DNA of 64,000 nt from Planctomycetota bacterium (GCA_038212275.1 JBBQUR010000003.1:96001-160000); one strand, 5' to 3'. Positions 2,842 to 27,420 are shown, counted from the first letter of the stretch. A program made the numbers and translations. The notes: generated by a model from the sequence alone, not told the origin.

Positions 2842-2891
2842 CGACCGCTTCGCCAGCAGAGGCTGCGGCCTGTGATATCGTTCGCGGCCTC

Positions 2892-4490: not shown

Positions 4491-4594
4491 CGCGGCGGCC
4501 CGACGATCCCGGCACGGCGCAGGCCGCGTCGCGTCGCACCGCGGCCGAGGCTCGCCGGGTGACAGCAGCCGGCCGGCCGGGGCACACTGGGGCG

Positions 4595-5809
4595 ATGTCC
4601 CTGCGCTCCGAGATCAATGCCGACGTGCCCGTGGCGCAGCCCGGCGAATTTGCTCCGCTGCAGCTCTCGCCCTCGCTGCCGATCTGGCCGCCGGTCGTGC
4701 TCGCGCCGATGGCCGGTGTCACCAATCCGCCCTTCCGCGCGCTGTGCCGCCGCCAGGGCGCCGGGCTCTACGTGGCCGAGATGCTGCACGCGCGCGGGCT
4801 CACCGAGGGCAACGCCTCCTCGCTGAAGATCGCCTCCTTCGGCAGCGACGAGGCCGTGCGCTCCGTGCAGATCTTCGGCGCCGACCCGGCCGAGATGGCC
4901 GACGCGACGCGCTACCTCGTGAACGAGCTCGGCGTGCATCACGTCGACATCAACATGGGCTGCCCGGTGCGCAAGGTGACGGTGCGCGGCGGCGGCTCGG
5001 CGTTGTGCGCGCGCCCGGAGCTCATGGCCGCAGTGCTGCGCGCGGTGGTGGCCGCCGCGGGCAGCGTGCCGGTGACGATCAAGGTGCGCCTCGGCCTCGA
5101 TGAGGACCGCATCACCTGGCCCGACGCGCTGGCCGCCGCCTCCGGCGAGGGCGCGCGCTGGATCGGCGTGCACGCCCGCACCGCCGCGCAGCTCTACTCC
5201 GGCCACGCGCGCTGGGAAGAACTGGCGCGCATCAAGGACGCCGCGCGCAGGCTGCCGGCGCCGGACGGCGCTACCGGCGACGGCTTCCCCGTCCTCGGCA
5301 ACGGCGACGTCTGGGAGGCGTGGGATGCGCTGCGCATGCTGCGCCTCACCGGCTGCGACGGCGTCATCATCGGCCGCGGCTGCCTCGGTCGGCCGTGGTT
5401 GTTCCGCGAGCTGGCCGACGTGTTCGACGGCCGCCAGCCGGGCGAGCCGCCGGCGCTGGGCGAGGTGCTCGCCATCCTGCGCGAACACGGCCAGCTCCTC
5501 GCGGAGTTCTTCGGCGAGCGGCACGGCGTGCGCGAGCTGCGCAAGTGGTGCGCCTGGTACACGAAGGGTTTCGAAGGCAGCGCGCGCGTGCGCGACGCGC
5601 TTCAGCGCATCGAAACGCTGGCCGAGATGGACGGCTGGCTCGCGCAGATGGATCCGTCGCTGCCCTTCCCGCGGAGCGCGCTGCGCGTCACCCGCGCCAA
5701 GCGCGGCGGCGCGCAGGACAAGGTGGCGCTCCCGCACGGCTGGCTGGACCTCGCGGAGCGCGAGCGGCGGGAACGGCCGGCGGATGCAGAGTCGGCCAAC
5801 CGCCCGTGA
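4595..5809 (+). CDS. dusB: tRNA-dihydrouridine synthase B
   Basis: LAPMAGVT, DINMGCP, VTIKVRLG, VHART, GNGDV, GRGCLGRPWLF; ATG 4595 within ORF 2948..5809. Confidence 0.9.
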   Translation: MSLRSEINADVPVAQPGEFAPLQLSPSLPIWPPVVLAPMAGVTNPPFRALCRRQGAGLYVAEMLHARGLTEGNASSLKIASFGSDEAVRSVQIFGADPAEMADATRYLVNELGVHHVDINMGCPVRKVTVRGGGSALCARPELMAAVLRAVVAAAGSVPVTIKVRLGLDEDRITWPDALAAASGEGARWIGVHARTAAQLYSGHARWEELARIKDAARRLPAPDGATGDGFPVLGNGDVWEAWDALRMLRLTGCDGVIIGRGCLGRPWLFRELADVFDGRQPGEPPALGEVLAILREHGQLLAEFFGERHGVRELRKWCAWYTKGFEGSARVRDALQRIETLAEMDGWLAQMDPSLPFPRSALRVTRAKRGGAQDKVALPHGWLDLAERERRERPADAESANRP

Positions 5810-5879
5810 CCGATCCGGCGAGCAGCCGGCGCTCGAGCCGCACTCGGCGCGCCACGCGGCATCTGCAACAATCCCCCGC

Positions 5880-6437
5880 GTGACTCCTGATCCGACGCGA
5901 CTGCCTCCCGACCGGCCCGTGAGCGGCGCGCCCGGCGCGCCGCCGCTCTTCCTGCCCGACGTGGCGTTCCCGCCGTACCGCTTCGTGCCGGGGCACACGA
6001 AGCATCCCTTCGCCCAGGTCGGCGGCTATGCGTATGGCGAGCGGCCGGCGCCGCCGCCCTTCGTCGCGCGCGACGACTGGCGCGCCAACGCCGCGTTTCT
6101 GCGCGGCTGCGACTTCTTCAATCGCGGCTGGTGGTGGGAGGCGCACGAGGCGTGGGAGTCTTTCTGGCATGTGGCCGAGGGGCGCGACCCCGCGCAGCAC
6201 GCGCTGCACAAGGCGCTCATCCAGCTGGCGGCCTCGGCGCTGAACCGCGAGCGCGGGCACGACCGCGGCGCGGACGAACTGCTCGTCACTGCGCTCGGCG
6301 GGCTGCAGCGCGCAGCGCTGGAAGCCGGCGGCGCGCAGCTGCTGGGCCTCGACCTCGACGCGCTGGCCCGCGATGCGCAGCATCACCTCGCCCGACCGAC
6401 CGCCGCGGTGAACGGCTTCTACATCGTCCCGCGCTGA
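5880..6437 (+). CDS. DUF309 family protein
   Basis: FPPYRFVPG..HP, FFNRGWWWEAHEAWESFW, ALIQLAA. Start codon approximate. Confidence 0.8.
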   Translation: MTPDPTRLPPDRPVSGAPGAPPLFLPDVAFPPYRFVPGHTKHPFAQVGGYAYGERPAPPPFVARDDWRANAAFLRGCDFFNRGWWWEAHEAWESFWHVAEGRDPAQHALHKALIQLAASALNRERGHDRGADELLVTALGGLQRAALEAGGAQLLGLDLDALARDAQHHLARPTAAVNGFYIVPR

Positions 6438-6614
6438 GGAGTGCGGGCCGTCGTGATCGCCGACTTCGGCTGCGACGGCGGGTGCGTGCGTCACGAAAGT
6501 GTGTCAACTCTCTGCGCACGGGCAGCCGATGAAGCCCGCCGCCAAGGCGAGGGGAAAGCGACTTGGTGCCGACGAGCGAACGTGCGCCGCAGGGTCGGTA
6601 GACTACGAACTCCC

Positions 6615-6920
6615 ATGCCAGCCACCCCCCGCATCCCCGTCCCCCGCGAACCGCTGGCAGCACTCTGCCTCCGCCACCACATCCGCAAGCTTTCCTTCTT
6701 CGGCTCCGTACTGCGCGACGACTTCGGTCCAGCCAGCGACATCGACATCCTCGTCGAGTTCGACCCGGAGTTTCCGGTGGGCTTCCGGATCTTCGACGTC
6801 GAGCAGGAACTCTCGCAGCTCTTCGACGGCCGCCGCGTGGACATCGTCAACCCCAAGTATCTGAACCGGCACCTGCGGGATCGCGTGCTCGCCGACGCGC
6901 TCGTCCAATATGCGGCATGA
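6615..6920 (+). CDS. Minimal nucleotidyltransferase (MNT/MntA-type antitoxin)
   Basis: LSFFGSVLRDDFGPASDIDILVEF (GS-x10-DxD) and GRRVDIV; overlaps the downstream HEPN gene. Confidence 0.9.
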   Translation: MPATPRIPVPREPLAALCLRHHIRKLSFFGSVLRDDFGPASDIDILVEFDPEFPVGFRIFDVEQELSQLFDGRRVDIVNPKYLNRHLRDRVLADALVQYAA

Positions 6921-7257
6921 CGACCTGGCCTACGTGCGCCACATGCTGGATCAGGCCGAGCTGGCTGTCTCGATGCTCGGGCACAAGACGTGAGCCCAGT
7001 TCGATGCCGATGACACCCTTCGACTCGCGCTGACCCATCTGGTGCAGACCTTCGGAGAGGCCGCTGGTCGTGTGTCTCCTGCCTTTCGCGGGCGCTGTGC
7101 CGAAGTGCCTTGGGAGCGCGTGATCGGCATGCGGCACCGCATCGTCCACGACTACCTGGACGTGGACTTCGACATCGTCTGGGATGTCGTGAAGCTGCAC
7201 CTGCCCGCACTGATCGCGGTGTTGAGGATGCGTGTCATCCCCGAGGCCGAACGCTAG
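6910..7257 (+). pseudogene. HEPN/DUF86 (HepT-type) RNase toxin interrupted by an in-frame TGA at 6991-6993
   Basis: Reading from ATG 6910 gives MRHDDLAYVRHMLDQAELAVSMLGHKT*AQFDADDTLRLALTHLVQTFGEAA...PWERVIGMRHRIVHDYLDVDFDIVW. The R-x4-H-x-Y HEPN motif lies downstream of the stop in the same frame. Confidence 0.85.
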
Positions 7258-7475
7258 CCTGTGCATGCAGTGAAGCCCTCTCCGCGGCTCACAAGCCGCG
7301 GCCCCGTTGAGGCCGCAGCCCAAGCGCCAGCGGACAGGGGAGCACTTCGCGCTGTGCCGTCCCATGGCTGCCCCGACAGCCTGGAACGGGTCGCCCATCA
7401 GCGGAGTTCATGGCAACTCCCGAGCCGCAGGGCGCGCGCGTTGATTTCCCGCCGCTTGTCCCTTTCGATGGCGGG

Positions 7476-8594
7476 ATGAGCGCCGCATCGCAGCCGCCGC
7501 AGGTGCCCCGGCTGCGCCGCCCGCGCCGGCCGCGCCGGCCGCGCCTCGCGGAAGCCGGGCTGCTGCTCGTCATCGTCGCGCTGTGCACGCTGCTGACGCT
7601 TGCGGCGGACACGCTCGTGCTGCACGGCGAGTCGATGAACGCCTTCCTGCGCGTGGACAACCTGCTCGCCAACGTGGCCACGCCGATGTCGTGGATGGCG
7701 ATCATGGCGCTGGGCGCGACCTGCGTGATCATCGCGGGCGGCATCGACATTTCGGTCGGTTCCATCTTCGGGCTGTCGGCGCTGGGCACGGCCGCGGTGC
7801 TGCAGGAACTGCCGGCCGATGCGAGCGCGTGGCTCGTGCTGCCGCTCGCGGTCGGCGTGGCTCTGGGCATCGGCGCGGCGTGTGGTCTGCTCAACGGCGT
7901 GCTCGTCGTCGGACTGCGCCTGCATCCCTTCATCGTCACGCTGGGGACGCTGTCCATCTTCCGCGGGCTGGCGCTCGTCGCGGTGAAGGCCAAGACGCTG
8001 CCTTCGCTCGGGCAGCAGTTGCCGGTCGCGCTCACCTCCGACGGCATCGGCGCGCGCGTCGCGCTGGGCGAGCACTCCTTCGTGCAGCCGGTGCCGATGC
8101 TCGTCATGCTGCTGTGCGCCGGGCTCGCGTGGATCTTCCTGGCGCACACGGTGGGCGGGCGCGAGGTGTACGCCGTGGGCGGCAATGCGGAGGCGGCGCG
8201 TTTCGCGGGCCTGCCCGTCGGGCGCATCACGCTGCGCGTCTACGTGATCTCCGGCGTGTGCGCCGGCATCGCGGGCCTGCTCTCCTGCGGCTTCTATCAA
8301 TCCGCGAACACCGCAACGGGCGAGGGCTACGAGCTCTCCGTCATCGCGGCGGCGGTGGTGGGCGGCGCGAGCATGGCCGGCGGCCGCGGCACGGCGCTGG
8401 GCGCGCTGCTCGGCGCGCTGGTCATCAAGCTCATCGAGAACGGCATCGACATCCTGCGCGAACTGCCGCTCGGCTTCGCGACGCTGCCGCTCGGCAAGGA
8501 GTACGGCAAGATCATCATCGGCGTGGCGATCCTGCTGGCCGTCGCGATCGATCGTGTCTCGGAGCGCTGGCGCCGCGGCGAGCCGTCGTCGTGA
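7476..8594 (+). CDS. Monosaccharide ABC transporter permease (RbsC/BPD_transp_2 family)
   Basis: IIAGGIDISVGS, PFIVTLGT, VYAVGGNAEAARFAG, YELSVIAAAVVGGASMAGGRG; multiple TM segments. Confidence 0.93.
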   Translation: MSAASQPPQVPRLRRPRRPRRPRLAEAGLLLVIVALCTLLTLAADTLVLHGESMNAFLRVDNLLANVATPMSWMAIMALGATCVIIAGGIDISVGSIFGLSALGTAAVLQELPADASAWLVLPLAVGVALGIGAACGLLNGVLVVGLRLHPFIVTLGTLSIFRGLALVAVKAKTLPSLGQQLPVALTSDGIGARVALGEHSFVQPVPMLVMLLCAGLAWIFLAHTVGGREVYAVGGNAEAARFAGLPVGRITLRVYVISGVCAGIAGLLSCGFYQSANTATGEGYELSVIAAAVVGGASMAGGRGTALGALLGALVIKLIENGIDILRELPLGFATLPLGKEYGKIIIGVAILLAVAIDRVSERWRRGEPSS

Positions 8595-16291: not shown

Positions 16292-16411
16292 ACGGCGCGC
16301 GCCGACAGCGCACGACGCTTGCCTGGGTGCTCGGGGTCGGCCTGCCCGTGCGCGCCGCGACCATCGCCCCTGATGCCCGGGCGCGCTCCGGTCTGTAAGC
16401 TCTGCGGCCCC

Positions 16412-18625
16412 GTGACACTCCTCGTTCTCAACGACGTCCACAAGCACTGGCCCGGCCGCGACCTGCTCGAGGGCGCGTCGCTGCAGATCGATCCGGGCGA
16501 GAAGATCGGCCTCGTGGGGCCCAACGGCGCGGGCAAGACCACGCTGCTCAAGCTCATCATCGGCGAGGACGAGCCCGACGGCGGCAGCGTCACGCTGCGG
16601 CGCGGGGCGCGGCTCGGCTACGTGCCGCAACGGCCGGAGTTTCCGCGCGGCGTGACGGTGCGGCAGCACGTCGGCTCGGGCCTCGCGGAACTGCTCGCGG
16701 CGCTCGCGGAGCATCATCGTGTCAGCGAGGCGCTCTCGCACGGCACGCACGAGGACCGCGGCGAGCACGCGCTGGACGAGGCCGCGCTGCTCAAGCTCAT
16801 CGAGGAGCAGGACCGCCTCGGGCATCTCATCGAGACCCTCGGCGGCTGGCACGTGGAGAACCGCGTCGAGCAGGTGCTCGCGGGCGTCGGCCTCGCGCCG
16901 GGCCTGTGGGACCGCGAGGCCGCCACGCTCTCGGGCGGCGAGAAGAGCCGCACCGCGCTGGCGGCCGCGCTCGTCGGCGGGCACGAACTGCTCATCCTCG
17001 ACGAGCCCACCAATCACCTCGACCTGCACGGCATCGAGTGGATCGAGGAATACCTGCGCACGCTTTCCGGCGCCGTGCTCATCGTGAGCCACGACCGCCG
17101 GCTGCTCGACACCTCGGTGGACGCGATCGTCGAGCTGGAGCACGGCACGCTGTCGCGCTACCCCGGCGGCTACACCAAGTATCTGCGCCTGCGCGCCGAA
17201 CGCTACCTCGCCGAGCGCCGCGCCTGGGATGAGCAGCAGGAATACATCCGCAAGGAAGATGCCTTCATCCGCAAATACATGGGCGGCCAGCGCACGACGG
17301 AAGCGCGCGGCCGCCGCACGCGCCTCGCCAGCCTCAAGCGCCTGCCCGAGCCGCGCCACGACGTGCGCGCGCCGGTCATCCGCCTGCCGCCCGCCGCCGA
17401 GGGCGGCGAACTGGTGCTCGAAGCGCGTGAGCTGTCCGGCGGCTACGCGGCAGCGCCGGGAGGCAGCGCTGCGGCCGGTGGCACCGGTGCGTCCGGTGCT
17501 CGCGCTGCGCTCGGCGCGACCGGCGCGCGCGCGGCGGCCGGCAAGGCGCGTGCCCTGTTCGCCGGAGTGGACCTGCGCGTCGACAAGGGCATGCGCATCG
17601 GAATCGTCGGACGCAACGGCGCGGGCAAGACCACGCTGCTCAAGATTCTCGCGGGAAAGATGGCGCCGCTCGCGGGCGAGCTGCGCACCGGGCACAAGGC
17701 CGCGTGCGGCTACTACGACCAGGAGACCGCCGGCCTGCTGCACGACGGCACGCCGATGACCGAGATCCGCCGCGACCACGCGCTCATGGTGGACGGCGAG
17801 GTTCGCAGCTGGCTCGCGCGCTTCCTCTTCCGCGGCGACGACGTCGAGAAGGACGTGTCGAAACTCTCGGGCGGCGAGCGCGCGCGGCTCTCGCTGGCCA
17901 AGCTGGTGCTCAACGGGCCGACGTGGCTCGCGCTGGACGAGCCCACCAACCACCTCGACCTGCCCGGCCGCACCGCGCTGGAGGAAGCGCTCTCGGAATT
18001 CACCGGCGCAATGCTCTTCGTGAGCCACGACCGCGCCTTCCTCGACGGCCTCTGCACGCACATCATGGAAGTGGGCAACGAGGACGACCCGGTGGACCCT
18101 GGCGACGCGCCCGAGGCCGCGCGCCACCCGCCGCGCCGCGTGCGTCTCGTGCTCGGCAACTACAGCGAGTGGCACGCCCGCGTGCTGCGCGAACGCGGCG
18201 AGCGCCAGGTGCAGCGCAAGGAGGACGGCCCGCGCACGTCTGCGACGCCGAGCGCGTCGGCGGCGGCGGTGCCTGCAGCGGCTGCCTCCGCGCGAGCCGC
18301 GAAGGACGAGACGTCCGCGAAGTCCGCCCCGTCAGCGAAGCCCGAGAAGGCTGAGAAGGCCGAGAAGGCTGAGAAGGCCGAGAAGGCCGCCGCGAAAGTG
18401 CCCGCCGCATCGTCCGGCCCCGAGCGCGTGCGCAACCCGTTCCGATTCAAGCAGCTCGAGGCGCGCATCATGGAGCTCGAAAAGGAGCTGAAGCTGCTGC
18501 ACGCGAAGATCGCCAGCCCCGAGGTCTACCTCGCGCCCGACAAGTTGAAAGTCACCGGCCAGCGCCTCGCCGTCGTCGAGCAGGAACTCGCCGCGGCGAA
18601 CAGCGAGTGGGAGAACTGGGGGTAG
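16412..18625 (+). CDS. ABC-F family ATPase (Uup/YheS/YdiF-like, with C-terminal coiled coil)
   Basis: Two NBDs GPNGAGKTT / GRNGAGKTT, LSGGE x2, LDEPTNHLD x2, VSHDR; no TM. Confidence 0.95.
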   Translation: MTLLVLNDVHKHWPGRDLLEGASLQIDPGEKIGLVGPNGAGKTTLLKLIIGEDEPDGGSVTLRRGARLGYVPQRPEFPRGVTVRQHVGSGLAELLAALAEHHRVSEALSHGTHEDRGEHALDEAALLKLIEEQDRLGHLIETLGGWHVENRVEQVLAGVGLAPGLWDREAATLSGGEKSRTALAAALVGGHELLILDEPTNHLDLHGIEWIEEYLRTLSGAVLIVSHDRRLLDTSVDAIVELEHGTLSRYPGGYTKYLRLRAERYLAERRAWDEQQEYIRKEDAFIRKYMGGQRTTEARGRRTRLASLKRLPEPRHDVRAPVIRLPPAAEGGELVLEARELSGGYAAAPGGSAAAGGTGASGARAALGATGARAAAGKARALFAGVDLRVDKGMRIGIVGRNGAGKTTLLKILAGKMAPLAGELRTGHKAACGYYDQETAGLLHDGTPMTEIRRDHALMVDGEVRSWLARFLFRGDDVEKDVSKLSGGERARLSLAKLVLNGPTWLALDEPTNHLDLPGRTALEEALSEFTGAMLFVSHDRAFLDGLCTHIMEVGNEDDPVDPGDAPEAARHPPRRVRLVLGNYSEWHARVLRERGERQVQRKEDGPRTSATPSASAAAVPAAAASARAAKDETSAKSAPSAKPEKAEKAEKAEKAEKAAAKVPAASSGPERVRNPFRFKQLEARIMELEKELKLLHAKIASPEVYLAPDKLKVTGQRLAVVEQELAAANSEWENWG

Positions 18626-18654
18626 GTGATGGGATCGGTACGCGGAGCCCGGGC

Positions 18655-19116
18655 ATGACCGGGCGAGACAGACCCGACACGCCCGGCGCACCCGATGCGT
18701 CCGACGCCCACCCGCTGCACCCCGCCTACTTCACGACGCGCTTCCACACCGAGGCCGCGGTGCCAGCGTGGCCCGCAGAGTTCGTGATCCTCTCCGCCTG
18801 CGCGACGACAGGTGAGACGTGGTCCGCGGAGCGCACGGCGCAGGCCGACCGCGCGCTCGAGAGCGAGTTGCGCGAGCGCAGCACGTGGGTCGTGCGCATC
18901 ACCGGTTCTTCCCCGAGCGGCGACCACGCCGAGCCGAGCTGGGCCGCGATTCTGCCGCTACCCGACGCGCTCGATGTGGGCCGCCGCTTCCTGCAGGACG
19001 CGCTCTACATCGTCCGCGGCGATGCCCTTTCCGTGACGCGCTGCAGTGACGATGCGCCGCTCGTCCACGTGGGCTCCTTCGCGGCGCACCTCGACCAGCC
19101 TCGCGCAGACCACTGA
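18655..19116 (+). CDS. DUF3293 family protein
   Basis: FVILSAC..GE, ADRALESEL, HAEPSWA, GRRFLQDAL pattern. Confidence 0.75.
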   Translation: MTGRDRPDTPGAPDASDAHPLHPAYFTTRFHTEAAVPAWPAEFVILSACATTGETWSAERTAQADRALESELRERSTWVVRITGSSPSGDHAEPSWAAILPLPDALDVGRRFLQDALYIVRGDALSVTRCSDDAPLVHVGSFAAHLDQPRADH

Positions 19117-19119
19117 GGT

Positions 19120-20124
19120 TCAGCATCGCAGCCCGGCCGCATCGCGCCGCTCCACGAAGGCTTCCGGCTCGACCGCGCCCGGCGCGTAGACCAGTGTGAC
19201 CAGCGCCTCGGCGGCGCCGGCGCACACCTCGCCCACCGCGCGCGCGCGGGCCGCGAGCGCACCCTTGCGATCGGCCTTGTGGGGATCCTTGCCGTAGAAC
19301 GCCCCGCCGCCGATGGGCACGCCGGGCCCCGCGCCATCCACGACGAGCTTCTTGCCCGACAGCCCGTTGTCGCCGTGCGGCCCGCCGATGGAGAAGTCGC
19401 CCGCACCGTTGAGGTGCAGGTGCGCGGAGTCGAAGCGCGCCACGCCGGGCAGTGCCGCCTCCAGCTCCGCGCAGCCCGCGCGGATCACCGGCACGAGCAG
19501 CCGATGCTGCTCCTCGTACGAAAGCCCCGGCACGTGCTGGATCGAGAACACCAGCCGTGTCCAGGTGCACGTGAGCCGATGCCCCGCGGGAAACGTGTTG
19601 TCCCCCTGCAGCACCGGCAGCAGCTTGAAGTCCGGGCCGAAGGTCTGCGGCGCATGCTGCTCCCGCCATCGGCGCACGTGCTCTCCGAGGCGCAGCGCGA
19701 GCCAGTGCGCGGGCGGCAGGTAGTCCGTGCCCGCGTTGCCGCAGGCGTAGCCGACGCAGATGGCCTGGTCGTCGGAGAGGTGGCGCATCTCGCGCTCGTC
19801 CTGCGAAAGTGCTTCGGCGCACAGATCGTGCGTGACGATGAGCCGCTCCGGGTCGGGCGACCACAGGCCGCCGTAGCCCGCCGCGCGATACGCGGCGCGC
19901 GCGAAGCGCGGCAGGAACTCGTCCGGGTCGCCCGGGCCGTGCGGCCCCGCGGCGATGCGCCCGGTGACGAAGACCTTGTCGGTGGACACGGCCACCTCCA
20001 CGCCGACGAGCGCATCGGGATCGATGGCAATCGCGTGCTGCACGCAGGCCTCCGCGATGGCGTCGGCCAGGCGGTCCGGGTGACCCGGCGAGACGTATTC
20101 GGCGCAATGAACGGTGCGGGACAT
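19120..20124 (-). CDS. metK: Divergent methionine adenosyltransferase (SAM synthetase) homologue, 334 aa
   Basis: EYVSPGHPDRLADAIAE, DDQAICVGYA, GPDFK, FSIGGPHGDNGLSGKKLVVD, GGGAFYGKDPHKADR; AAGGAG SD upstream. Confidence 0.85.
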   Translation of the reverse strand: MSRTVHCAEYVSPGHPDRLADAIAEACVQHAIAIDPDALVGVEVAVSTDKVFVTGRIAAGPHGPGDPDEFLPRFARAAYRAAGYGGLWSPDPERLIVTHDLCAEALSQDEREMRHLSDDQAICVGYACGNAGTDYLPPAHWLALRLGEHVRRWREQHAPQTFGPDFKLLPVLQGDNTFPAGHRLTCTWTRLVFSIQHVPGLSYEEQHRLLVPVIRAGCAELEAALPGVARFDSAHLHLNGAGDFSIGGPHGDNGLSGKKLVVDGAGPGVPIGGGAFYGKDPHKADRKGALAARARAVGEVCAGAAEALVTLVYAPGAVEPEAFVERRDAAGLRC

Positions 20125-20156
20125 GCGAGGTGACTCCTTGGGGACATGCGGCGCGC

Positions 20157-21566
20157 TCAGGCGCCGCCGAGATCGGGAAGCAGTTCGACGTGGCGCGCTG
20201 CGGGAGCAAGGTCGTTGTGCGACGCGGCGCCGAGCGGCCGGTACAGGCCCACATACAGCGCCGTGCCGAGGCTGGTGAACGCGTCGGGCGCGACCGCGCC
20301 GACGTAGCCGTCGGTGATCAGCACGGTGCGCCGCGGCCGGCGCGTGCGCGGCAGCGCGGCGAGGTGCTGGAGGACGCAGCGGATGTCGGTGCCCAGCGTG
20401 TTGGCGAGGCGCTGACGCAGCAGATCCTGCGGCGACACCTCGCCGATCACGGTGCTGAACACGAAAAGCCGGATCGCGCGCGCCCGGTGCAGCGGCGCCA
20501 GCGCGCCCGCGAGTGGCCGCAGCGCGGCAGCCATCGAGCCGCTCACGTCCAGATAGACGTGCGCAACGGGCAGCGGTTCGCGACGCGTGCGCGGCGCGAG
20601 ACAGCTCCCGCGGTAGAGCAGCGGAGCGGCGCCGGTCAGCCGCCGCAGCGCGTGGGCGCGCCGATCGCCGGCCTGCGGCAGCACCGTTTCGATCTCCAGC
20701 GGCTGCACGGAGTGGAGCAGGCGGCGGCTGCCGTGCCACGCGTGCTGCTGCAGGCCGGCACGCGCCAGCAGGCGGCGGATCGCGGCGCGCAGCGCGCGCG
20801 TCGGGTCGGCCGGGGCACCGAGCATCCAGGACTTCACGGGGCGCCCCGTGTCGCGCCCGCCGAGGCGTTGCCGCGGAGGCGGCCAGCCCTCGACGACGCG
20901 GCGCAGCACGTCGCGCAGCGTCGCGTCGCGCGTCGCGGAGTCATCCCGCACGCCGTCACCGTGCTCGCCTTCGTGGTCGCCGAGCAGCACGGGCGATGTG
21001 TCCTCGCCGTCGTCGAGCAGCGCGGTGAGCAGCTCGAAGATCTCGTGGTACGTGATGTCGCCAGTGCGCCCGTAGAGCAGGTCGTGGATGCGGCGCTCCT
21101 CGGGTCCCGCGTCGGCGGGCAGCGGCTGCGGGCGTTCGGGCCAGCCGGGCGCCGGGCGCAGCAGCCGCCCGGGGAACTCCTCCCATGAGTTGAGCGCCTG
21201 GAAGAAGGACGTGAACTCGCGCCCCGGAAACTGCTGGCAGAGCAGCGCGTTGATGACCGCGTCGAAGGCGAGGTTGTGCGCGAGCGTGGCGCGCGGGAAC
21301 AGCCGTGTGTGCCCGAGCACCACGTGCTGCAGCTCGTGCATGACCAGCAGGAAGAGGTGCTCGTCCGTCCGGCACGACGCCTCGATGAAGCGCGGATTCA
21401 GCAGCATCCGCGGGCGCTCGACGCACTCGATGGCGGCGGTGGGCACGTCCTCCGTGCAGGCGATGTCCACGAGCGAAAGGAGCTTCTCCATCTGGTAACT
21501 CGCGGCCGGGATCACGGAGTAGATGCGCGCGCGCAGCCGGGCGGCGTCGGAGTCGTGCGTGGTCAT
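20157..21566 (-). CDS. DUF2201-like HExxH metallopeptidase domain + C-terminal vWA domain
   Basis: MHELQHVVLGH and NLAFDAVIN in the N-terminal half; MIDAS elements DVSGS, GTD, ITDG in the C-terminal half. Confidence 0.85.
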   Translation of the reverse strand: MTTHDSDAARLRARIYSVIPAASYQMEKLLSLVDIACTEDVPTAAIECVERPRMLLNPRFIEASCRTDEHLFLLVMHELQHVVLGHTRLFPRATLAHNLAFDAVINALLCQQFPGREFTSFFQALNSWEEFPGRLLRPAPGWPERPQPLPADAGPEERRIHDLLYGRTGDITYHEIFELLTALLDDGEDTSPVLLGDHEGEHGDGVRDDSATRDATLRDVLRRVVEGWPPPRQRLGGRDTGRPVKSWMLGAPADPTRALRAAIRRLLARAGLQQHAWHGSRRLLHSVQPLEIETVLPQAGDRRAHALRRLTGAAPLLYRGSCLAPRTRREPLPVAHVYLDVSGSMAAALRPLAGALAPLHRARAIRLFVFSTVIGEVSPQDLLRQRLANTLGTDIRCVLQHLAALPRTRRPRRTVLITDGYVGAVAPDAFTSLGTALYVGLYRPLGAASHNDLAPAARHVELLPDLGGA

Positions 21567-22264
21567 GGCGTCCCCTCGGGTTGCCGCGCGCCGGGGTGTG
21601 GCTTCGGAGCCGCGGCCGCCCGACGCCTGCGCGTCCGGACTTGCGCGGTGAGAAAACGCGGGTCATCCACCGCGAGGTCGGCCTCGAAGAGGTGACGCCA
21701 GGTGCGGTCCGGCGCACGCGACGCGATGGAGAGTGCGCCGACGCGCCGCTCGAGCACCGCGAGGGTGAGCGCGAGGTCTGCGCACGGTGCCCAGACGTCT
21801 CCGGGAGCCCAGTCTTCGGGTGGAAACCAGCCCATGAGCACGCCGCTCGGCCTGCAGCGCGATGCCCCGTGCTGTCCTGCCGCGTCCGCCGCGCATGGCG
21901 CGGAGTCGAGCAGCGCGCGATCGAGGCAGCCGGCGCGTGTGGCCGAGGCGAGCAGGCGCTCGATGCTGCCCTTCCAGCGTCTCTGCGCCTTCCGCACCAG
22001 CGCGGCGCGCAGGGAGGATGGCACGGGTCCGTATCTGGCAATCTCTTCGCGTGTTGCCATGCTGGTCGGAGCGGACGCGCGCGCCGGCACTGCCGCATTC
22101 GCCACCAACCTGGCGGCGCGCGCTCGCGGAGCCGTGTCCAGCAGGCCCTGCGCGAGCAGCGCATGCGCGAGGCTGAACACCGTCACCCGTCCCCAGACCG
22201 GCTTCTGGAGCGACGTGACCTGCGTGCGCGGGGGCGCGCTCATGTTGTGGAGCCACGTCGTCAT
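21563..22264 (-). CDS. Hypothetical protein (233 aa) coupled to MoxR and vWA genes
   Basis: ATG 22264 overlaps the MoxR stop (ATGA) and its stop overlaps the vWA start (ATGA). No family recognised. Confidence 0.65.
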   Translation of the reverse strand: MTTWLHNMSAPPRTQVTSLQKPVWGRVTVFSLAHALLAQGLLDTAPRARAARLVANAAVPARASAPTSMATREEIARYGPVPSSLRAALVRKAQRRWKGSIERLLASATRAGCLDRALLDSAPCAADAAGQHGASRCRPSGVLMGWFPPEDWAPGDVWAPCADLALTLAVLERRVGALSIASRAPDRTWRHLFEADLAVDDPRFLTAQVRTRRRRAAAAPKPHPGARQPEGTP

Positions 22265-23847
22265 CGCGGGCCCTCGACGGACAGGCGTTCCGCGAGGCGC
22301 AGGCGCTGCCAGAGTTGCCGGAAGGTGTCGAGCACGCGCTGCGGCGTCGTCGTCCCGAAGCCATCCGGCAGGAGCGACTCGAGCAGATTGCGGGCATAGC
22401 CGTTGTGCACGCGTGCCGGATGGCCGTCGTCCACCGGCAACTCGGCGGCGAGGCGACCGATCTCGCGCGCCGTGTTCACCTGCGCGGCCGACACCGACAG
22501 CGAGCGCACCGCGGGCTGCAGCGCGCGCCGCGCGTCGCGCGCCAGCGTCTCGAAGGCGGTGGCGTGCAGGCGCCCGTCGCGGTGCAGCGCGAGGTGCAGC
22601 GCCAGGGCCACGGCCGTGCGGCGCGCGGGCTCCGTCACCGACGCGACGCCGTCGAGCACGAGCGGCGTCAGCTCGTCGGCCCCGAAGCCGGGCAACTCGA
22701 TGGCGCGGAGCGCGCGCTCGAGCGGGTCGGGCGTGGCGAGGAGCGCGCGCCACGGGTCGTCGTCGGCCAGGCCGCTGAGCTTCCACGCGTGGCGGTGCAG
22801 AGCGAGCAGCGCGGCGCGGTCTGCACGGCCGTGTCGCGCGAGCTCCGGGTCACCGTGCAGGACCGCGAGCCACAACGATGTGTTCCAGTCCACCTCGCCG
22901 ATGGGCGCGGTCGGATGTGCGGCGCGTTGCAGCGTGACGCGCGCTGCCTGCAGCGCGAGCGCCGAGCGCAGCAGCATCGTCAGGCGGCGCGTGGAGAACG
23001 CCGGCTGCTTGCAGGCTTCGCGCTGCGCGGCCAGCGCGAGGAAGTAGTTCGCGAGACGGTCCGGCACCGAGCGCGAGAAGGCCGCGAACAACTGCTCGGC
23101 TCGCGCCACAAGATCCGGCAACTCCACCGGAAACTCGTGCCGTCCGTGGAACTGGTCGAGCAGGATCGAGCGGCGCTCGTGATCCGTGAGGTCGGCCCAG
23201 GTCGGCACCTCGACGAGGAAGGCAAAGCGGTCCGCGAGCGCAGGGTCGAGCGGCTCGGCGCCGAGATAGGCGTCGTCGTCCGCGCCGTCGGCATCGTCCG
23301 CGGCGGGCGGATTCATGGCCGCCCAGCGGTAGCGCAGCTTCTCGAGCAGCACGCCCTGCACGCGCCGTTCGTGCACGATCGGGAACAGCTTGTTCGCGAG
23401 GTCCGGCCGGCAGCGCGACAACTCGTCGATGAACACCACCTCGGCGTCCCAGATCGCCGTCGGCGTCGCGATGTAGCGCAGGTGGGTAGCGCTTTCGTCG
23501 GGCACCGGCACGCCGACGAGGTCGTCGTAGTTGAGCAGGCTCGCGTTGTAGAAGCGGTACTCCAGGCGCAGCGCCTGCGCCAGCCGCTCCAGCAGAAAGC
23601 TCTTGGCCGTGCCGTGCCGCCCGATGAGCAGCATCGGCTCCGCGCTCGCGAGCGCCGCGAGCACGACCGGCTCGAGCGCGGTCCAGCCGTGCAGCCCGAG
23701 AGGCTCCGTGAGCAGCGAGGGGATGCACATCGTGGGTCGCACCTGCGCCTCGTCTGGCGCCAGAAGGGGCGTCGGCGGGGGCGCCGGTGCGGCCGCGCCA
23801 TCGGATCCGGCTGCGGTCCGGGCTGCAGTTCGGACGCGCGGACTCAC
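22261..23847 (-). CDS. MoxR-family AAA+ ATPase with C-terminal helical extension
   Basis: Walker A GRHGTAKS, Walker B VFIDE, sensor AAMNP, LDPALADRF. Confidence 0.9.
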   Translation of the reverse strand: MSPRVRTAARTAAGSDGAAAPAPPPTPLLAPDEAQVRPTMCIPSLLTEPLGLHGWTALEPVVLAALASAEPMLLIGRHGTAKSFLLERLAQALRLEYRFYNASLLNYDDLVGVPVPDESATHLRYIATPTAIWDAEVVFIDELSRCRPDLANKLFPIVHERRVQGVLLEKLRYRWAAMNPPAADDADGADDDAYLGAEPLDPALADRFAFLVEVPTWADLTDHERRSILLDQFHGRHEFPVELPDLVARAEQLFAAFSRSVPDRLANYFLALAAQREACKQPAFSTRRLTMLLRSALALQAARVTLQRAAHPTAPIGEVDWNTSLWLAVLHGDPELARHGRADRAALLALHRHAWKLSGLADDDPWRALLATPDPLERALRAIELPGFGADELTPLVLDGVASVTEPARRTAVALALHLALHRDGRLHATAFETLARDARRALQPAVRSLSVSAAQVNTAREIGRLAAELPVDDGHPARVHNGYARNLLESLLPDGFGTTTPQRVLDTFRQLWQRLRLAERLSVEGPR

Positions 23848-24068
23848 GAGCGTACCGCCGCGGTCGGCTGTGCCAGGTGCGCGAGGAGTGCGTCGCGCAG
23901 GAGGATGGCCTCGTCGCGCCGCTGCGTGCGCAGCGATCGGCGCACGCGGCGGACCCGGCCGTCAAGCGTCTCGAGCGTGTAGTGGATCCACCAGACGCCG
24001 TGGTTGTTCCACAGGTGGTGGAGCGGATTGCCGCCGGTGATGCGGAGGGACAGGCGCGCTGCGCGCAT
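23844..24068 (-). CDS. 74-aa basic protein (NPLHHLWNNHGVWWIHYT...RRVRRSLRT...EAILLRD), first gene after the riboswitch
   Basis: AAAGGAA SD; stop overlaps the MoxR GTG. The beta-beta-beta-alpha pattern resembles integrase arm-type/AP2-like DNA-binding domains (inference). Confidence 0.8.
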   Translation of the reverse strand: MRAARLSLRITGGNPLHHLWNNHGVWWIHYTLETLDGRVRRVRRSLRTQRRDEAILLRDALLAHLAQPTAAVRS

Positions 24069-24096
24069 GGTGCGTGTTCCTTTCGGTCACGCACCA
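24068..24096 (-). promoter_or_regulatory. 9-bp hairpin enclosing the SD and pairing the A of the start codon (putative riboswitch expression platform)
   Basis: Minus strand UGGUGCGUG-ACCGAAAGGAA-CACGCACCA|UG. Confidence 0.65.
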
Positions 24097-24127
24097 GAAA
24101 CACGGCCGCGCGTCGTCGCGCTGTCGT

Positions 24128-24260
24128 CGGAAGTTTCGTTCGCCGGGGCGCTCACGCCCCGCGCGCATCCCTCCGGCGTACGCCGCCGGAGGAAACCACC
24201 TTGGCCTTCCGGGCCAGGTTGGCCGACCCCTCCCGCGAGGGAGGAGCCGTTCCTGATGCT
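24128..24260 (-). ncRNA. SAM-I/IV-type (SAM clan) riboswitch
   Basis: P1 GCAUC/GAUGC; P2 CGGCUCCUCCC-UCGC-GGGAGGGGUCG; P3 GCCAACC..GGUGGU with AA/U loop and UGGCC-CGGAA-GGCCA; P4 CCUCCGGCG/CGCCGGAGG; P5 GGGGCG-UGAG-CGCCCC; L3 CGGAA pairs with tail UUCCG (PK-2). Operon ends in a metK homologue. Confidence 0.85.
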
Positions 24261-24267
24261 GGTGCGG

Positions 24268-24273
24268 ACTCTA
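24268..24273 (-). promoter_or_regulatory. Putative -10 element (TAGAGT) for the riboswitch transcript
   Basis: TAnnnT hexamer 7 nt before the A preceding P1; same spacing as other promoters in the window. Confidence 0.5.
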
Positions 24274-24378
24274 ACCTGCCGCGCCGGATCGCGCACCGGT
24301 CATGTGTGTCATGAAATCCGGTGCGGCCGGCAGCCCCGCTCCCGTGTCACGGCGCTGACAGAATGTGTGCCCGCTGGT

Positions 24379-24411
<33 letters not shown>

Positions 24412-24535
24412 TGGATCTGCCGTTCCGGGACATCGGGAGCATGATCCTGCGCCTGCAGCTGCGCGATGATCGGGGCGCGCGGGGCATCGGCCTGCTCGAG
24501 CGGCCCCGCACTCATCTGCCGGCGGTCTTCCGAAA

Positions 24536-24990
24536 TCATTCCCCGTCGGGGGCTCGGCGGCGCCGTGCGCCGGGCGGCGTGACTTCCACGTCCACGCTGG
24601 TCTCGCCGTCGCCGGCCGCGCTCTTCAGCACGATGCGCGCGGTCCACCATTCGCGAGTGTCGAAGTCGCACCTGGCGACGTAGCGCAATCTGCCGCGCGA
24701 CACAACGGCGACACCGGCGGAGATCCAGCGCCGGGGCGGGGATGAGCGCGTGGCCGTCGTGCTGTCCGCCAACTCGGCCATGGCCCACCTCTGCCATGAC
24801 ATCGGACGAATGCTCCTGCAGAGCCGGGAATGCGCGGCCGGGGAGCCAGGGTGATCGACCGGCTCGCCGCGGATCCCCGGCTCCAACGTGGCGTGGAGCA
24901 GGCGCTCGTCGATCTCGGGGAGCGTTTCCGCCTGGAGCCGGGCAGCGGCTTCGCCTCCGCGTGCTCAACGCACGAAGACCGAACGATGAC
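24536..24990. other. Probable gene debris (protein-like fragments on both strands)
   Basis: Minus fragment RYVARCDFDTREWWTARIVLKSAAGDGETSVDVEVTPPG; plus fragment VIDRLAADPRLQRGVEQALVDLGERF; no coherent full ORF. Confidence 0.3.
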
Positions 24991-25020
24991 GCGGCGAGCC
25001 GCGCTCGTACAAATCCCTTG

Positions 25021-25521
25021 CTATCGTTTTCGACGCATCGCGGCGGGTCGCGATCTGGTTGCGACATCGCGCGTCCGCAGCTCGACATGGCAGCCCAGCA
25101 CGCCCAGCAGCTCGATCAGTTGCCGCAGCGACGTGCGTGGTTTGCCGGTGTCGAGCACTCGGTAGAGCTGAGCAGCCGAGGTGCCGAGTCGCCGGCAGAT
25201 CTCGCGGTGGGAGAGGAGTGTCTTTTCCATGCGCCGCTGAGCCTCCAACGTCAGCTCATAGGCCAAGATGTCCGCCATGAAGGCCGGGTCCTTGTTCTCG
25301 TCGAGGACAGCATCCAGGTGGAGCGATCCCTCGCGTCCCGAGGCGAGCTCGTACGTGAAGGCCTCGCGCCCGAGTTCCGGGTCCACGTAGACGCGGACGA
25401 TGCGGTCCCTGGAGGTCGGCTTCGGTGTGACCTTGGCGTAGGGAAAGCGCAACAGGCCCTTGGGTGTCGCGACCTCGAAGGCCTTGCTGCGGTTGTTGGC
25501 GCGCACGCTGCGGATCTTCAA
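25021..25521 (-). CDS. Putative antitoxin: DUF2442-like N-terminus + C-terminal HTH
   Basis: TTG start overlaps the toxin stop; VYVDPELGREAFTYELASG; HTH SHREICRRLGTSAAQLYRVLD. Confidence 0.7.
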   Translation of the reverse strand: MKIRSVRANNRSKAFEVATPKGLLRFPYAKVTPKPTSRDRIVRVYVDPELGREAFTYELASGREGSLHLDAVLDENKDPAFMADILAYELTLEAQRRMEKTLLSHREICRRLGTSAAQLYRVLDTGKPRTSLRQLIELLGVLGCHVELRTRDVATRSRPAAMRRKR

Positions 25522-25712
25522 AGCTGGCCCTCGGCAACGAGTTGCTCGATGACCCGACGGACGCGCCTGCTCGCGTGTCCGCTGATCGGACGAAGTCTTT
25601 CCAGGTCCCATTTCACGAGCAGGATCCTCCGGAAGTCGACGTGCACATGCCGTGGGTCGTGGTCACCCTTCCATGTGAGGAAGATGTCACCCGCCCGTCG
25701 GATCTTCGACAT
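25518..25712 (-). CDS. DUF4160-like putative toxin (64 aa)
   Basis: GDHDPRHVHV motif; GGAGG SD; upstream of an HTH partner. Confidence 0.7.
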   Translation of the reverse strand: MSKIRRAGDIFLTWKGDHDPRHVHVDFRRILLVKWDLERLRPISGHASRRVRRVIEQLVAEGQL

Positions 25713-25730
25713 CGCAACCGTTACCTCCCG

Positions 25731-25745
25731 TGATAACGCTTGTCA
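25731..25745. promoter_or_regulatory. Imperfect palindrome TGATAA-cgc-TTGTCA, candidate TA autorepression operator
   Basis: 6-3-6 inverted repeat about 20 nt upstream of the toxin ATG, in an AT-richer patch. Confidence 0.5.
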
Positions 25746-25782
25746 ACCTGCACGCCCTTTTGACTTCTCGATTGCTCGATGA

Positions 25783-25822
25783 CACGGCTGCACGGCTGCA
25801 CGGCTGCACGGCTGCACGGCTG
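25783..25822. repeat. Perfect 8-bp tandem repeat (CACGGCTG)x5
   Basis: Direct reading of the sequence. Confidence 0.95.
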
Positions 25823-25962
25823 CATGGGCGGGCCATGCGCCGGTTGCGTCGCAGCGACGATGGCCCACGCATCAGGCAGGGAAGGGGCCGAGCGGCTGGG
25901 GTTACCTCAGCGCAGCGAGTCCGCCAACGGATACCCGGGAGACACCCGACGTGAGCTTCGGC

Positions 25963-27420
25963 TCAGCTCGCCGCGAGAATCCGCCGTGCGCCCTTCGCCA
26001 GGCTCGATTCGAAGGACGCACGCCGCACGGCGCGCGCGCGGCGGCGCTCGGAGGATTGCAGCTCGTGGCGCAGTGCGGCGGGGAGCAGGTCGGTGATCGC
26101 GTCGCACTCCACGCCGCCCTTGTGCGCGTGGTCGAAGCCGGCCAGCGCGCGGTCGTAACCCTGCTGGCCTGGCACGCGCTTGCAGCCGTGCACCAGCGCG
26201 GCGACGACCTCGGCGCGGTCCGCGAGCGTCAGCGACGGATGCGTCGCGATGCGCGCGCCCCAGTCGTCGAAGCAGGGCCCCAGCGGCAGCAGCAGATCCG
26301 GGCTGCCGCGCAGGCAACGCGCCTCGCGCAGCGGGTAGTGGCGATGTCCCTCGGACGCGAGCAACTCGCGGTAGAGCGCACCGGCCTGCAGGAAGGCGCC
26401 GCCGTAGCGGGCGTGGCCGGCGGCCGGCGCCTCGCCGCCGACGAGCGCAGGGCCGCTGCGCACGAGGTCGCCGTAGCGATCCTTCTGTGCGGCGCCGACG
26501 CGCTTGCCGCTCTTCGCGGCGAGGCCCTGCATGACGTCGCCGGCATTGTGCGTGAGGATCGCGGCGAGCTGCAGCAGCGCCAGCTCGCGCCCCGGCTTCG
26601 CCGCGCAGGCGAGAAACACGGCGGCTTCGCGCGACAGCTCCGCATCGATCTCGTGCTCGAAGCGCGCCGCGCCAGGCTCGTCGCCCGCCGCGAGCAGGCC
26701 GAGCATGCCGCCGCACAGGACGGAGAGCCGCTCTCCGTCGTGCCCGGAAACGACGTCCGGGAGGCTCGTGCCGATCGCACGCGCGTCGCTCGCGTCGGCG
26801 AAGCCTGTTCCCGTCCGTTGCGCGGTCACGACTGCGGTCGTCGACGCCGACGCACTTGCCGCGCCCGCCGCGCCCGTCGCGCCCGACACGCCCGACACGC
26901 CCGACACGCCCGACACGCCCGACACGCCCGACACGCCTGCCTCGACCCAGCGCGCGCTGATGCCGCGGATGTCCCAACCGGCCAGCGCGAGCGCGAGCTC
27001 GACCATGCGCGCCAGTTCCTCGGGAGGCTGGTCCTCGAACCAGAGCGCATGGCGGATCTTCGCGTCCACGTCGGTGGGCACGTAGCTCGCGACGGAGGCC
27101 CAGTGCGCGGCGAGGCACAGCGCGAAGTAGTCGGTGCGCGACGCGGCGTCGGGCAGCGCCGTCGCGACGAGCAGTTCCGGCCGGCGCGAGTGCGCCATGA
27201 GGATGCGCCACCAGCCCAGCGGATGCGCGCCGAGGTCCGACAGCCGCACGCCCTGAGGCACCGAGGCATCGTCCGGCAGACGGCCGGCGTCGGGATGGCT
27301 GCCGTCGAACAACCACGGCGCCGCGACATGCACCAGGCCGACGAGCGTGCGCGGCCCGATGAACCCGCCGAAAGCACCGGACGGCTCCGGCGAGGGTGCG
27401 TCGGCCGAAGGATTCGGCAC
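25963..27420 (-). CDS. Conserved-looking hypothetical protein with an internal (GVS)n insertion
   Basis: AAHWASVASYVPTDVD, SGHDGE, THNAGD, EGHRHYPLR, LPLGPCFDDWG; 9-bp repeat GCCCGACAC x6 at about 26881-26934. Start uncertain (27420 or 27528). Confidence 0.75.
   Translation of the reverse strand: MPNPSADAPSPEPSGAFGGFIGPRTLVGLVHVAAPWLFDGSHPDAGRLPDDASVPQGVRLSDLGAHPLGWWRILMAHSRRPELLVATALPDAASRTDYFALCLAAHWASVASYVPTDVDAKIRHALWFEDQPPEELARMVELALALAGWDIRGISARWVEAGVSGVSGVSGVSGVSGVSGATGAAGAASASASTTAVVTAQRTGTGFADASDARAIGTSLPDVVSGHDGERLSVLCGGMLGLLAAGDEPGAARFEHEIDAELSREAAVFLACAAKPGRELALLQLAAILTHNAGDVMQGLAAKSGKRVGAAQKDRYGDLVRSGPALVGGEAPAAGHARYGGAFLQAGALYRELLASEGHRHYPLREARCLRGSPDLLLPLGPCFDDWGARIATHPSLTLADRAEVVAALVHGCKRVPGQQGYDRALAGFDHAHKGGVECDAITDLLPAALRHELQSSERRRARAVRRASFESSLAKGARRILAAS

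Follow-up and report, generated by a model that had tools for sequence, protein, structure and literature searches.

A SAM-riboswitch-headed operon joining a MoxR-type ATPase and an HExxH/vWA protein to a divergent MetK paralogue

Supply of S-adenosylmethionine (SAM) is central to all methylation, and to our knowledge few dedicated accessory systems serve it in bacteria beyond MetK itself and control by riboswitches or repressors. An operon in a 64,000-nucleotide (nt) stretch of a Planctomycetota bacterium genome (GCA_038212275.1, JBBQUR010000003.1:96001-160000; this whole stretch is called the window below) raises the question of why a SAM-sensing RNA would stand ahead of a MoxR-type AAA+ ATPase, a vWA protein and an unusual relative of SAM synthetase. 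Here, we analyzed this locus and its relatives in other genomes, following a preliminary description that had been made from the sequence of the window. The operon proves to be a widespread module headed by SAM aptamers, and the MoxR/vWA proteins may serve the MetK-like protein as their client when SAM is scarce.

The operon and its SAM-clan aptamer

The operon occupies positions 19120-24264 on the minus strand, in surroundings of about 72% G+C, and consists of a SAM-I/IV-type aptamer followed, in 5' to 3' order, by genes for a small protein (P0001), a MoxR-type AAA+ ATPase (P0002), P0003, an HExxH plus vWA protein (P0004) and a divergent MetK (P0006) (Table 1). As read from the sequence, the first four genes are joined by GTGA at 23847-23844 (P0001/P0002), ATGA at 22264-22261 (P0002/P0003) and ATGA at 21566-21563 (P0003/P0004). 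The stop codon of P0004 (TGA, 20159-20157) is followed by a 32-nt spacer (20156-20125), which carries AAGGAG at 20139-20134, nine nt before the ATG of P0006 at 20124. The preliminary description, with its five minus-strand genes, three 4-nt overlaps and 32-nt gap with AAGGAG before the metK homologue, was accurate on all of these points.

It had also placed one SAM-clan riboswitch ahead of all five genes. At gathering score, Rfam gave no match across the whole 64-kb window, and a permissive scan assigned the leader to SAM-I/IV (RF01725) with 25.1 bits against a gathering score of 41.1 (E 0.18), a sub-threshold score that is insufficient evidence by itself. Related loci supplied the rest. A covariance model, R1, was built from 26 of their leaders with the window sequence excluded; its alignment carries a P1-constrained RNAalifold structure, and many of its members lie above the Rfam gathering score. 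(MAFFT alignments of few leaders were too poor a basis for a model and were replaced by this one.) R1 finds a single match in the 64 kb, on the minus strand and with 59.9 bits (E 1.9e-13), and together with the related loci it establishes that the aptamer is real and stands where the preliminary description had put it.

The window leader folds into P1, P2, P3, a P4-like hairpin and a 3' hairpin, the same architecture as in the leaders of two related loci, L004 and L005. RNAalifold recovered P2 and P3 from a MAFFT leader alignment, and 11 of its 16 pairs show compensatory changes. Moreover, a pseudoknot joining the P3 loop to the 3' tail, GGAAG/CUUCC in the window, covaries across loci, reading GGAGA/UCUCC in most of them and CGGAC/GUCCG in L074. 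The longest complementary run has a mean of 4.8 bp versus 3.2 bp in shuffled tails (50 distinct leaders) and reaches at least 5 bp in 33 of the 50. The window element shares the P1/P3 core, this pseudoknot and the position in the 5' leader with both SAM-I/IV and SAM-I (RF00162). Whereas related loci exceed the Rfam thresholds, the window copy scores low because of long insertions in P2 and a P4-like hairpin.

The related loci were obtained from a survey of one genome per species (185,579 species), in which 346 loci encode a MetK-like relative; the best 80 of the 346 were fetched (numbered with the prefix L) and searched with tblastn for P0001-P0004. They belong to Planctomycetota, Verrucomicrobiota, Lentisphaerota, Kiritimatiellia, Bacilli, Clostridia, Acidobacteriota, Gemmatimonas and others. 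A direct scan of 15 loci detected four SAM-I/IV aptamers and one SAM-I aptamer above threshold just 5' of the homologous operon, and Rfam searches of the host genomes added many further aptamers, all mapped coordinates of which are aptamer-like sequence. R1 gave 53 matches over the 80 fetched loci. Among the 55 assessable loci (those with a MoxR match and at least 300 nt of upstream sequence), a SAM-clan aptamer heads the operon in 52, on the same strand and directly upstream. These comprise 47 loci with an R1 match within 1 kb, four with SAM-I, and L038, which was counted by hand because its tblastn match overlaps the aptamer and the automatic count had passed over it. The four are Firmicutes-type loci, in which a classic SAM-I aptamer takes the place of SAM-I/IV.

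The gene order is conserved as well. In 76 of the 80 loci, P0004 immediately precedes the MetK-like gene; in the four misses the contig extends no more than 145 nt upstream of the match. P0002 was detected in 62 of 80, most misses being at contig ends, and P0002 and P0004 are present together in 62 of 80 as a MoxR/vWA genomic pair. The preliminary description would have counted its reading as refuted had such linkage never occurred; given the association of MoxR-vWA loci with a MetK-like gene (76/80) and with a SAM aptamer (52/55), this refutation clearly fails.

SAM riboswitches are often situated upstream of metK, and SAM-I/IV variants occur in several phyla, mostly in metagenomes (Weinberg 2010, PMC2864571); in the main-text passages and supplement matches from that paper, we saw no statement on the gene context of SAM-I/IV. 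The operon described here is unlike the standard Met/Cys/SAM pathway operon of SAM-I clan riboswitches.

It had further been proposed that the system is switched on by SAM depletion. In the window leader, GGUGCGUG at 24095-24088 pairs with CACGCACC at 24076-24069 to form a hairpin whose loop holds a GGA Shine-Dalgarno sequence and whose 3' arm abuts the start codon of P0001. This hairpin is present in both the minimum-free-energy and the centroid structures (fold z of the leader RNA = -4.58). No terminator-like site was found on the minus strand between the window aptamer and the start codon, and the one SAM-I/IV locus scanned, L037, is likewise without an intrinsic terminator. The OFF switch in the window leader is thus probably translational, by occlusion of the ribosome-binding site, or else depends on Rho. 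SAM-OFF switches standardly place an intrinsic terminator after the aptamer, and this design is present in all three SAM-I loci examined (L063, L064 and L072), where a terminator hairpin with a U-run separates the aptamer from the start of MoxR; in two of the three, a good promoter-like site lies close upstream. By analogy with these loci, the window leader is predicted to bind SAM and to repress the operon, which would be ON at low SAM, and the proposed response to SAM depletion gains support to this extent.

Several further aptamers were recorded in the course of these searches. L074 has tandem aptamers (4850-6551): aptamer 1 (4850-4933) controls a MetK gene (346 bits) immediately upstream of the operon, and aptamer 2 (6423-6551) precedes the MoxR operon. 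Extra SAM-I/IV-type aptamers lie a few kb downstream of the operon in L019 (13457-13589, minus strand, 72 bits with R1) and L070 (12535-12640, plus strand, 61 bits with R1), where they head other genes. In L030 (2826-6591), four co-oriented genes, encoding a 330-aa protein, a HIRAN-domain protein, a 258-aa protein and a Sel1-repeat protein, stand between the aptamer and MoxR, and the whole may be an extended SAM-controlled operon. Verrucomicrobiota-type host genomes (G012, G015, G018, G033, G035, G041, G043-G046 and G049) contain one classic SAM-I aptamer elsewhere (66-85 bits) and SAM-I/IV at the operon itself, so that two SAM aptamer classes coexist within one genome. In the window's own genome, no SAM-IV (RF00634) aptamer was found among the 150 of 1791 candidates scored, and R1 recovered the operon site only, among the 150 of 4430 candidates scored.

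The MetK paralogue and the proteins encoded with it

P0006 scores 135.5 bits against TIGR01034, for which the equivalog cut-off is 309.4, and matches all three MetK Pfam domains, two of them above cut-off. The top Foldseek match of its AlphaFold2 model (mean confidence score, pLDDT, 88.2) is AtMAT2 (6vd2; E 9e-20, TM 0.77, 30% identity), and the nearest solved sequence has an E-value of 2.6e-31. The MetK-like family comprises more than 2000 proteins of 335-395 aa, most of them about 372 aa, which bear the source name 'methionine adenosyltransferase domain-containing protein'; P0006 and its sub-clade have about 40 C-terminal residues fewer than most members. The motifs GHPD, DDQ, PDxK, GDxGLxGxK and GGGAxxGKDxxKxD are all kept in P0006. 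Among orthologues, GHPD and DDQ are each found in 71 of 72 sequences and GDNG in 70 of 72, and the ATP, triphosphate and metal residues are invariant across 69 diverse sequences. P0006 therefore shares the three-domain methionine adenosyltransferase (MAT) fold and motifs of canonical MetK, but at about 30% identity and with different residues at the methionine site.

The latter differences were located by mapping onto MAT2A, using the alignment offset (query residue 7 equals residue 21 of the 395-aa MAT2A chains) and motif spacing. Glu70 is replaced by Arg56, Gln113 by Cys102, Ser114 by Ala103 and Arg264 by Lys258; R56 and C102 are each conserved in at least 90% of sequences, and K258 is invariant. 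Asp252 (equivalent to Asp258), Lys259 (equivalent to Lys265) and the triphosphate residues hardly vary, if at all, and the Phe250 equivalent is kept. In MAT2A, the main-chain N of methionine is reported to bond Glu70 and, from the partner subunit, Asp258, and its O to bond Gln113; S114A has 2.5% activity and Q113A 75.6%, mutations of Arg264 impair activity, and gating-loop mutants of the human enzyme (S114A) are rescued by binding of the regulatory MAT-beta (PMC6850014). MAT2A/MAT-beta offers a precedent for partner-dependent MAT activity, and we propose that P0006 may depend on partners too.

The preliminary description had raised the matter of a separate canonical metK, and the window's genome indeed has one, on another contig, with 578.8 bits against TIGR01034. 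A canonical metK above cut-off is present in 48 of 50 host genomes, the other two having a 306-bit copy and a fragmented copy. Scores in host genomes are 105-181 bits for the MetK-like proteins versus 460-600 for the canonical ones. The MetK-like copy is always additional to the housekeeping metK and does not replace it. Two Opitutales-type loci encode, between the small protein and MoxR, a further MetK of canonical type (L017:5474-6577 and L035:5463-6599; about 470 bits, all three Pfam domains).

P0004 combines an N-terminal HExxH putative metallopeptidase domain resembling DUF2201_N with a C-terminal vWA domain that has a complete metal-ion-dependent adhesion site (MIDAS). Both Pfam matches are sub-threshold (VWA_CoxE, 19.4 against 26.4 bits; DUF2201_N, PF13203, 17.5 against 23.2), and a profile search of solved proteins returned no relative of P0004. 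H77, E78, H81 and H86 of the first domain and D340, S342, S344, T372 and D419 of the second are invariant in 42 orthologues, while HExxH is found in 64 of 66 orthologues and the MIDAS motif DxSxS in 62 of 66. Open reading frames (ORFs) P0275 and P0277, which unite HExxH/vWA and MetK-like parts, as well as P0075, were rejected as fusions, for their junctions are Arg/Pro-rich and of low complexity, and they are likely frameshifted gene calls.

P0002 contains an AAA_5 domain (PF07728, 49.5 bits against a cut-off of 22) at about residues 60-170, followed by about 300 C-terminal aa that match no family. It falls below the curated cut-offs of the MoxR subfamilies (AAA_3, 20.4 against 27; bpMoxR, 23.6 against 27; RavA NF010054, 18.1 against 681), and its nearest solved protein is RavA (E 5e-5). 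Walker A and Walker B are each found in 54 of 56 orthologues.

Two small proteins accompany this pair. P0001, with the core NPxHHLWNNxGxWW.HYT...RxSLxTxxxxxAxxxRD, has no Pfam or NCBIfam family, only a weak similarity to DUF6538 (E 0.024); it was detected in 24 of 80 loci by tblastn and in 24 loci plus the window by hidden Markov model (HMM), and is confined to one branch. P0003 also matches nothing in Pfam or NCBIfam and was detected by tblastn in 35 of 80 loci. It has conserved N-terminal N-M-S-x-P-P-R and C-terminal LYxxxR motifs, with N7, M8, P11, R13 and R183 invariant. Its AlphaFold2 model is of moderate confidence (pLDDT 76.9), and fold searches gave a best Z of 2.6 (VIA wide) and nothing at E<=0.001 in the PDB (Foldseek), which does not imply a novel fold. 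The P0003 HMM (group A) detects the shorter middle gene of Kiritimatiellia/Firmicutes-type operons in five of five tested (E 7e-13 to 2e-18). The family thus occurs in both operon types, and the universal core consists of four genes: MoxR, P0003 family, HExxH-vWA and MetK-like. It is a small, system-specific family: a search of 1.84 billion proteins gave 369 cluster representatives at E<=1e-3. In L023, P0001 is fused in frame to the MoxR N-terminus (ORF 5975-7849, 624 aa), and the MoxR homologue P0273 (33% identity over about 470 residues) carries a P0003-type domain fused at its C-terminal end; these fusions link P0001 and P0003 physically to the ATPase.

The module is unevenly spread, as an accessory element would be. 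A P0004 homologue is present in three of 40 relatives of the window's genome (two of 15 in the same family and one of 25 elsewhere in the order), and searches of 72,556 plasmid and 50,697 phage records found none. The module is accordingly accessory, as the preliminary description had held, and patchy, and not visibly borne by plasmids or phages. A viral origin was also rejected for the sole IMG/VR match (L100), which is a host-prophage junction; there (positions 366-6055), the aptamer leads two small ORFs, MoxR and an ORF the size of P0003, P0004 breaks off after HExxH, convergent phage tail genes (Phage_tail_APC) come next, and the operon appears to have been cut by the prophage boundary. 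Another broken copy was found in an alphaproteobacterial metagenome-assembled genome (L018:8629-10927), with a 91.6-bit aptamer, MoxR/vWA fragments and an intact MetK-like gene. Its leader is near-identical to those of L014, L061, L065 and L079 from Verrucomicrobiae and Rokubacteria, which suggests recent cross-phylum transfer or mis-binning.

Table 1. Coordinates of the operon features and the convergent neighboring gene in the window
Feature	Position	Strand	Basis
SAM-I/IV-type riboswitch aptamer	24126..24264	-	own covariance model R1, 59.9 bits; RF01725, 25.1 bits
Expression platform: spacer and hairpin	24069..24125	-	RNA folding
P0001, small protein, 74 aa	23844..24068	-	tblastn, HMM
P0002, MoxR-type AAA+ ATPase, 528 aa	22261..23847	-	Pfam AAA_5
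P0003, 233 aa, no family match	21563..22264	-	orthologue HMM
P0004, HExxH + vWA, 469 aa	20157..21566	-	motifs; weak VWA_CoxE, DUF2201_N
P0006, divergent MetK paralogue, 334 aa	19120..20124	-	TIGR01034, MAT fold
DUF3293 gene, convergent; possibly associated, outside the core	18607..19116	+	Pfam PF11697, 37.3 bits

The DUF3293 gene downstream ends 3 nt from the stop of the MetK-like gene and overlaps the end of a co-oriented ABC-F ATPase gene (16319-18625). A MetK-like homologue with a C-terminal DUF3293 fusion exists (P0119, 515 aa). As a core component, DUF3293 was rejected, since tblastn placed it near the operon in only two of 80 loci, and Pfam bore out one of these. On the other side, about 3 kb of upstream sequence (24300-27400) has no Pfam match except a sub-threshold DUF4160 (25518-25712, minus strand, 21.6 against 23 bits), and G+C dips to 0.65 at 25000-26000 from about 0.72 around it; this segment may be decayed foreign DNA. 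The toxin-antitoxin pair that the preliminary description had seen nearby was not verified, the DUF4160 match being all that was found.

Possible functions of the operon

MoxR-vWA pairs such as CbbQ/O, NorQ/D and CoxD/E serve one enzyme encoded next to them, and by analogy we take the MetK-like protein as the client here. The reading that we prefer, with a probability of roughly 0.5, is a low-SAM-induced module in which MoxR/vWA and the accessory proteins would serve the MetK-like client and so restore SAM. The operon would be horizontally mobile and SAM-repressed, kept OFF by its RNA while SAM is abundant (in Firmicutes-type relatives by transcription termination), and the five genes would be expressed once SAM falls. 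P0001 and P0003 would then act with the ATPase as accessory proteins, and P0004, which also bears the metallopeptidase-like HExxH domain, would be the adaptor by way of its vWA/MIDAS domain. The machine would assemble, activate or un-jam a MetK-like enzyme with an altered methionine site and gating region, for which we infer SAM as the product. The outcome would be a second, partner-dependent SAM synthetase that gives extra SAM-synthesising capacity when SAM is short. This reading draws on the aptamers, the conserved gene order, the intact catalytic motifs, the fusions to the ATPase, the extra MetK genes in L017, L035 and L074 and the canonical metK that exists alongside. Two different SAM aptamer classes head the same operon, and its last gene encodes a MAT fold that keeps the triphosphate and metal residues. 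That MoxR/vWA might act on the atypical MetK had been the first option of the preliminary description; it is the best-supported reading, with the client relationship itself suggested by analogy.

Several observations weigh against it. The changes at the methionine site fall on residues important for making SAM and may mean that no SAM is made from free methionine. Three of the 55 assessable loci are without a nearby aptamer, none having been found in L011 and L069 and that of L030 lying 3.7 kb upstream. In L013, L018 and L082, the MetK-like gene persists although the MoxR/vWA genes are absent or reduced to remnants, and since L018 retains its aptamer without intact partners, the paralogue may work without MoxR/vWA. 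Finally, a pure activase model assigns no role to the HExxH domain.

The second option of the preliminary description, a response to SAM depletion by phages, is in our estimate unlikely, though it is the strongest competitor. The riboswitch would sense the drop in SAM caused by a phage SAM lyase and induce a lyase-insensitive MetK together with an AAA+/vWA/protease machine, which would free or degrade inhibited MetK complexes or shield the cell from its own SAM-dependent restriction or BREX. Besides cleaving SAM, the T3 SAMase inhibits its synthesis and overcomes BREX (bioRxiv 10.1101/2023.02.27.530186), and PDB entry 8bb1 is entitled 'T3 SAM lyase in complex with S-adenosylmethionine synthase'. 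The patchy distribution, over many phyla and three of 40 relatives, resembles horizontal transfer, and AAA+ plus HExxH resembles an ATP-dependent protease. Defence-type genes do lie close to some loci, and flanks outside the window often resemble defence islands. In L070 (1469-6505), the BREX genes PglZ and BrxL stop about 100 nt short of the operon aptamer, and the MetK-like gene is followed by genes for an AAA_33 kinase and a Thg1-like protein; DndB-E flank the operon in L057. L035 is flanked by a C5 DNA methylase gene together with LexA-like and SRAP genes, L030 by Schlafen/AlbA, NUDIX, ADP-ribosylglycohydrolase and HIRAN genes, and HNH, LmuB-like, RT and PDC genes occur near further loci. 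However, enrichment was not supported in the ten pairs compared with a matched control, the flanks of canonical metK in the same ten genomes (of 12 pairs, those of L032 and L079 were dropped as near-duplicates of L014 and L065). PADLOC matches at E<=1e-10 were given by 21 of 140 flanking ORFs at the operon versus 13 of 111 at canonical metK (Fisher p=0.47), and by eight of ten versus six of ten loci (Fisher p=0.63). Likewise against a defence role, the window's own neighbors are ABC transporters and peptidases and include no defence genes, some loci have metabolic neighbors (metA in L006, extra metK genes), no P0004 homologue appeared in the plasmid and phage records searched, and the sole IMG/VR match is a host-prophage junction.

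A different substrate for the MetK-like enzyme is more doubtful still. On this account, prompted by Arg in place of the Glu that binds the amino group of methionine and by a replaced gating region, the enzyme would adenosylate a methionine analogue or a peptide-bound Met without a free alpha-amino group. P0003 is a candidate, through the invariant Met of its N-M-S-x-P-P-R motif, and the peptidase and ATPase would then act on the product to process or release it. In its favor, R56, C102 and K258 are conserved at positions of the methionine site and Arg264 while the triphosphate and metal residues are invariant, the P0003 family with its invariant Met is found only with the operon, and HExxH is a universal component. 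Yet a SAM riboswitch is simplest if the operon makes SAM, the equivalents of Asp258, Phe250 and Lys265 are kept, and some site changes may be tolerated, given that Q113A of MAT2A retains three quarters of its activity (PMC6850014); the argument is also one from sequence.

We regard as highly speculative a combination of these ideas, in which the MetK-like enzyme, with its charge-reversed methionine site (Glu to Arg) and replaced gating region, would adenosylate a non-canonical sulfur substrate, possibly the P0003 Met, and AAA+ and HExxH would unfold and cleave the product, giving either a riboswitch-gated, protein-templated sulfonium route or a SAM-lyase-proof emergency supply during phage attack. 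Least probable is regulated proteolysis, in which MoxR/vWA/HExxH would be an ATP-dependent protease acting on, for example, housekeeping MetK or SAM-consuming enzymes, with the MetK-like protein as recognition adaptor or decoy: AAA+ and HExxH are universal with intact catalytic motifs, and the paralogue could in principle pair with MetK because MetK active sites lie at subunit interfaces (with Asp258 from the partner, PMC6850014), but such pairing with a target is conjecture, and invariant catalytic ATP/triphosphate residues across the 69 sequences would be unexpected in a mere adaptor.

Relation to known systems and significance

CbbQ-CbbO (the Rubisco activase), NorQ-NorD, CoxD-CoxE and RavA-ViaA likewise bring together an AAA_5 MoxR gene, a vWA/MIDAS gene and a single enzyme gene, with translational coupling. 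The operon differs from them in its putative client, a MetK paralogue, the HExxH domain on the vWA protein, the presence of P0001 and P0003, and the SAM riboswitch, and sequence similarity to these pairs is marginal (for P0002 the RavA match at E 5e-5, for P0004 no PDB match). vWA-MoxR 'ternary' conflict systems have been proposed from comparative genomics (Pfam bpMoxR, PF20030). With these, the operon shares the below-threshold bpMoxR match (23.6 against 27), a vWA partner and patchy spread; it is without their beta-propeller or effector third component and has instead a metabolic enzyme and a metabolite riboswitch. In a full-text literature search, no paper among the matches listed linked MoxR/vWA, DUF2201 or AAA+ with MetK or a SAM riboswitch, in agreement with the preliminary description, which knew of no such module; matches on RavA/ViaA transcriptomics and on FUR-regulated MoxR were set aside as unrelated to the operon. 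The components are of known kinds, and their combination, proposed client and control appear to be new.

For riboswitch annotation, the window leader and its relatives mean that Rfam thresholds miss a sizeable subgroup of SAM-I/IV aptamers that are GC-rich and bear insertions. For the biology of SAM supply, a SAM-sensing RNA appears to control an AAA+ machine, a vWA/metallopeptidase adaptor (its peptidase activity putative), two proteins without a family and an altered MetK. This module recurs in many phyla, with at least 346 genomes at species level. If MoxR/vWA activates the paralogue, the operon would encode a 'MetK activase' and add a new class of client for MoxR chaperones. A new substrate for the paralogue would point to new sulfonium chemistry, and if the module counters phage SAM lyases, the riboswitch would be a sensor of infection.

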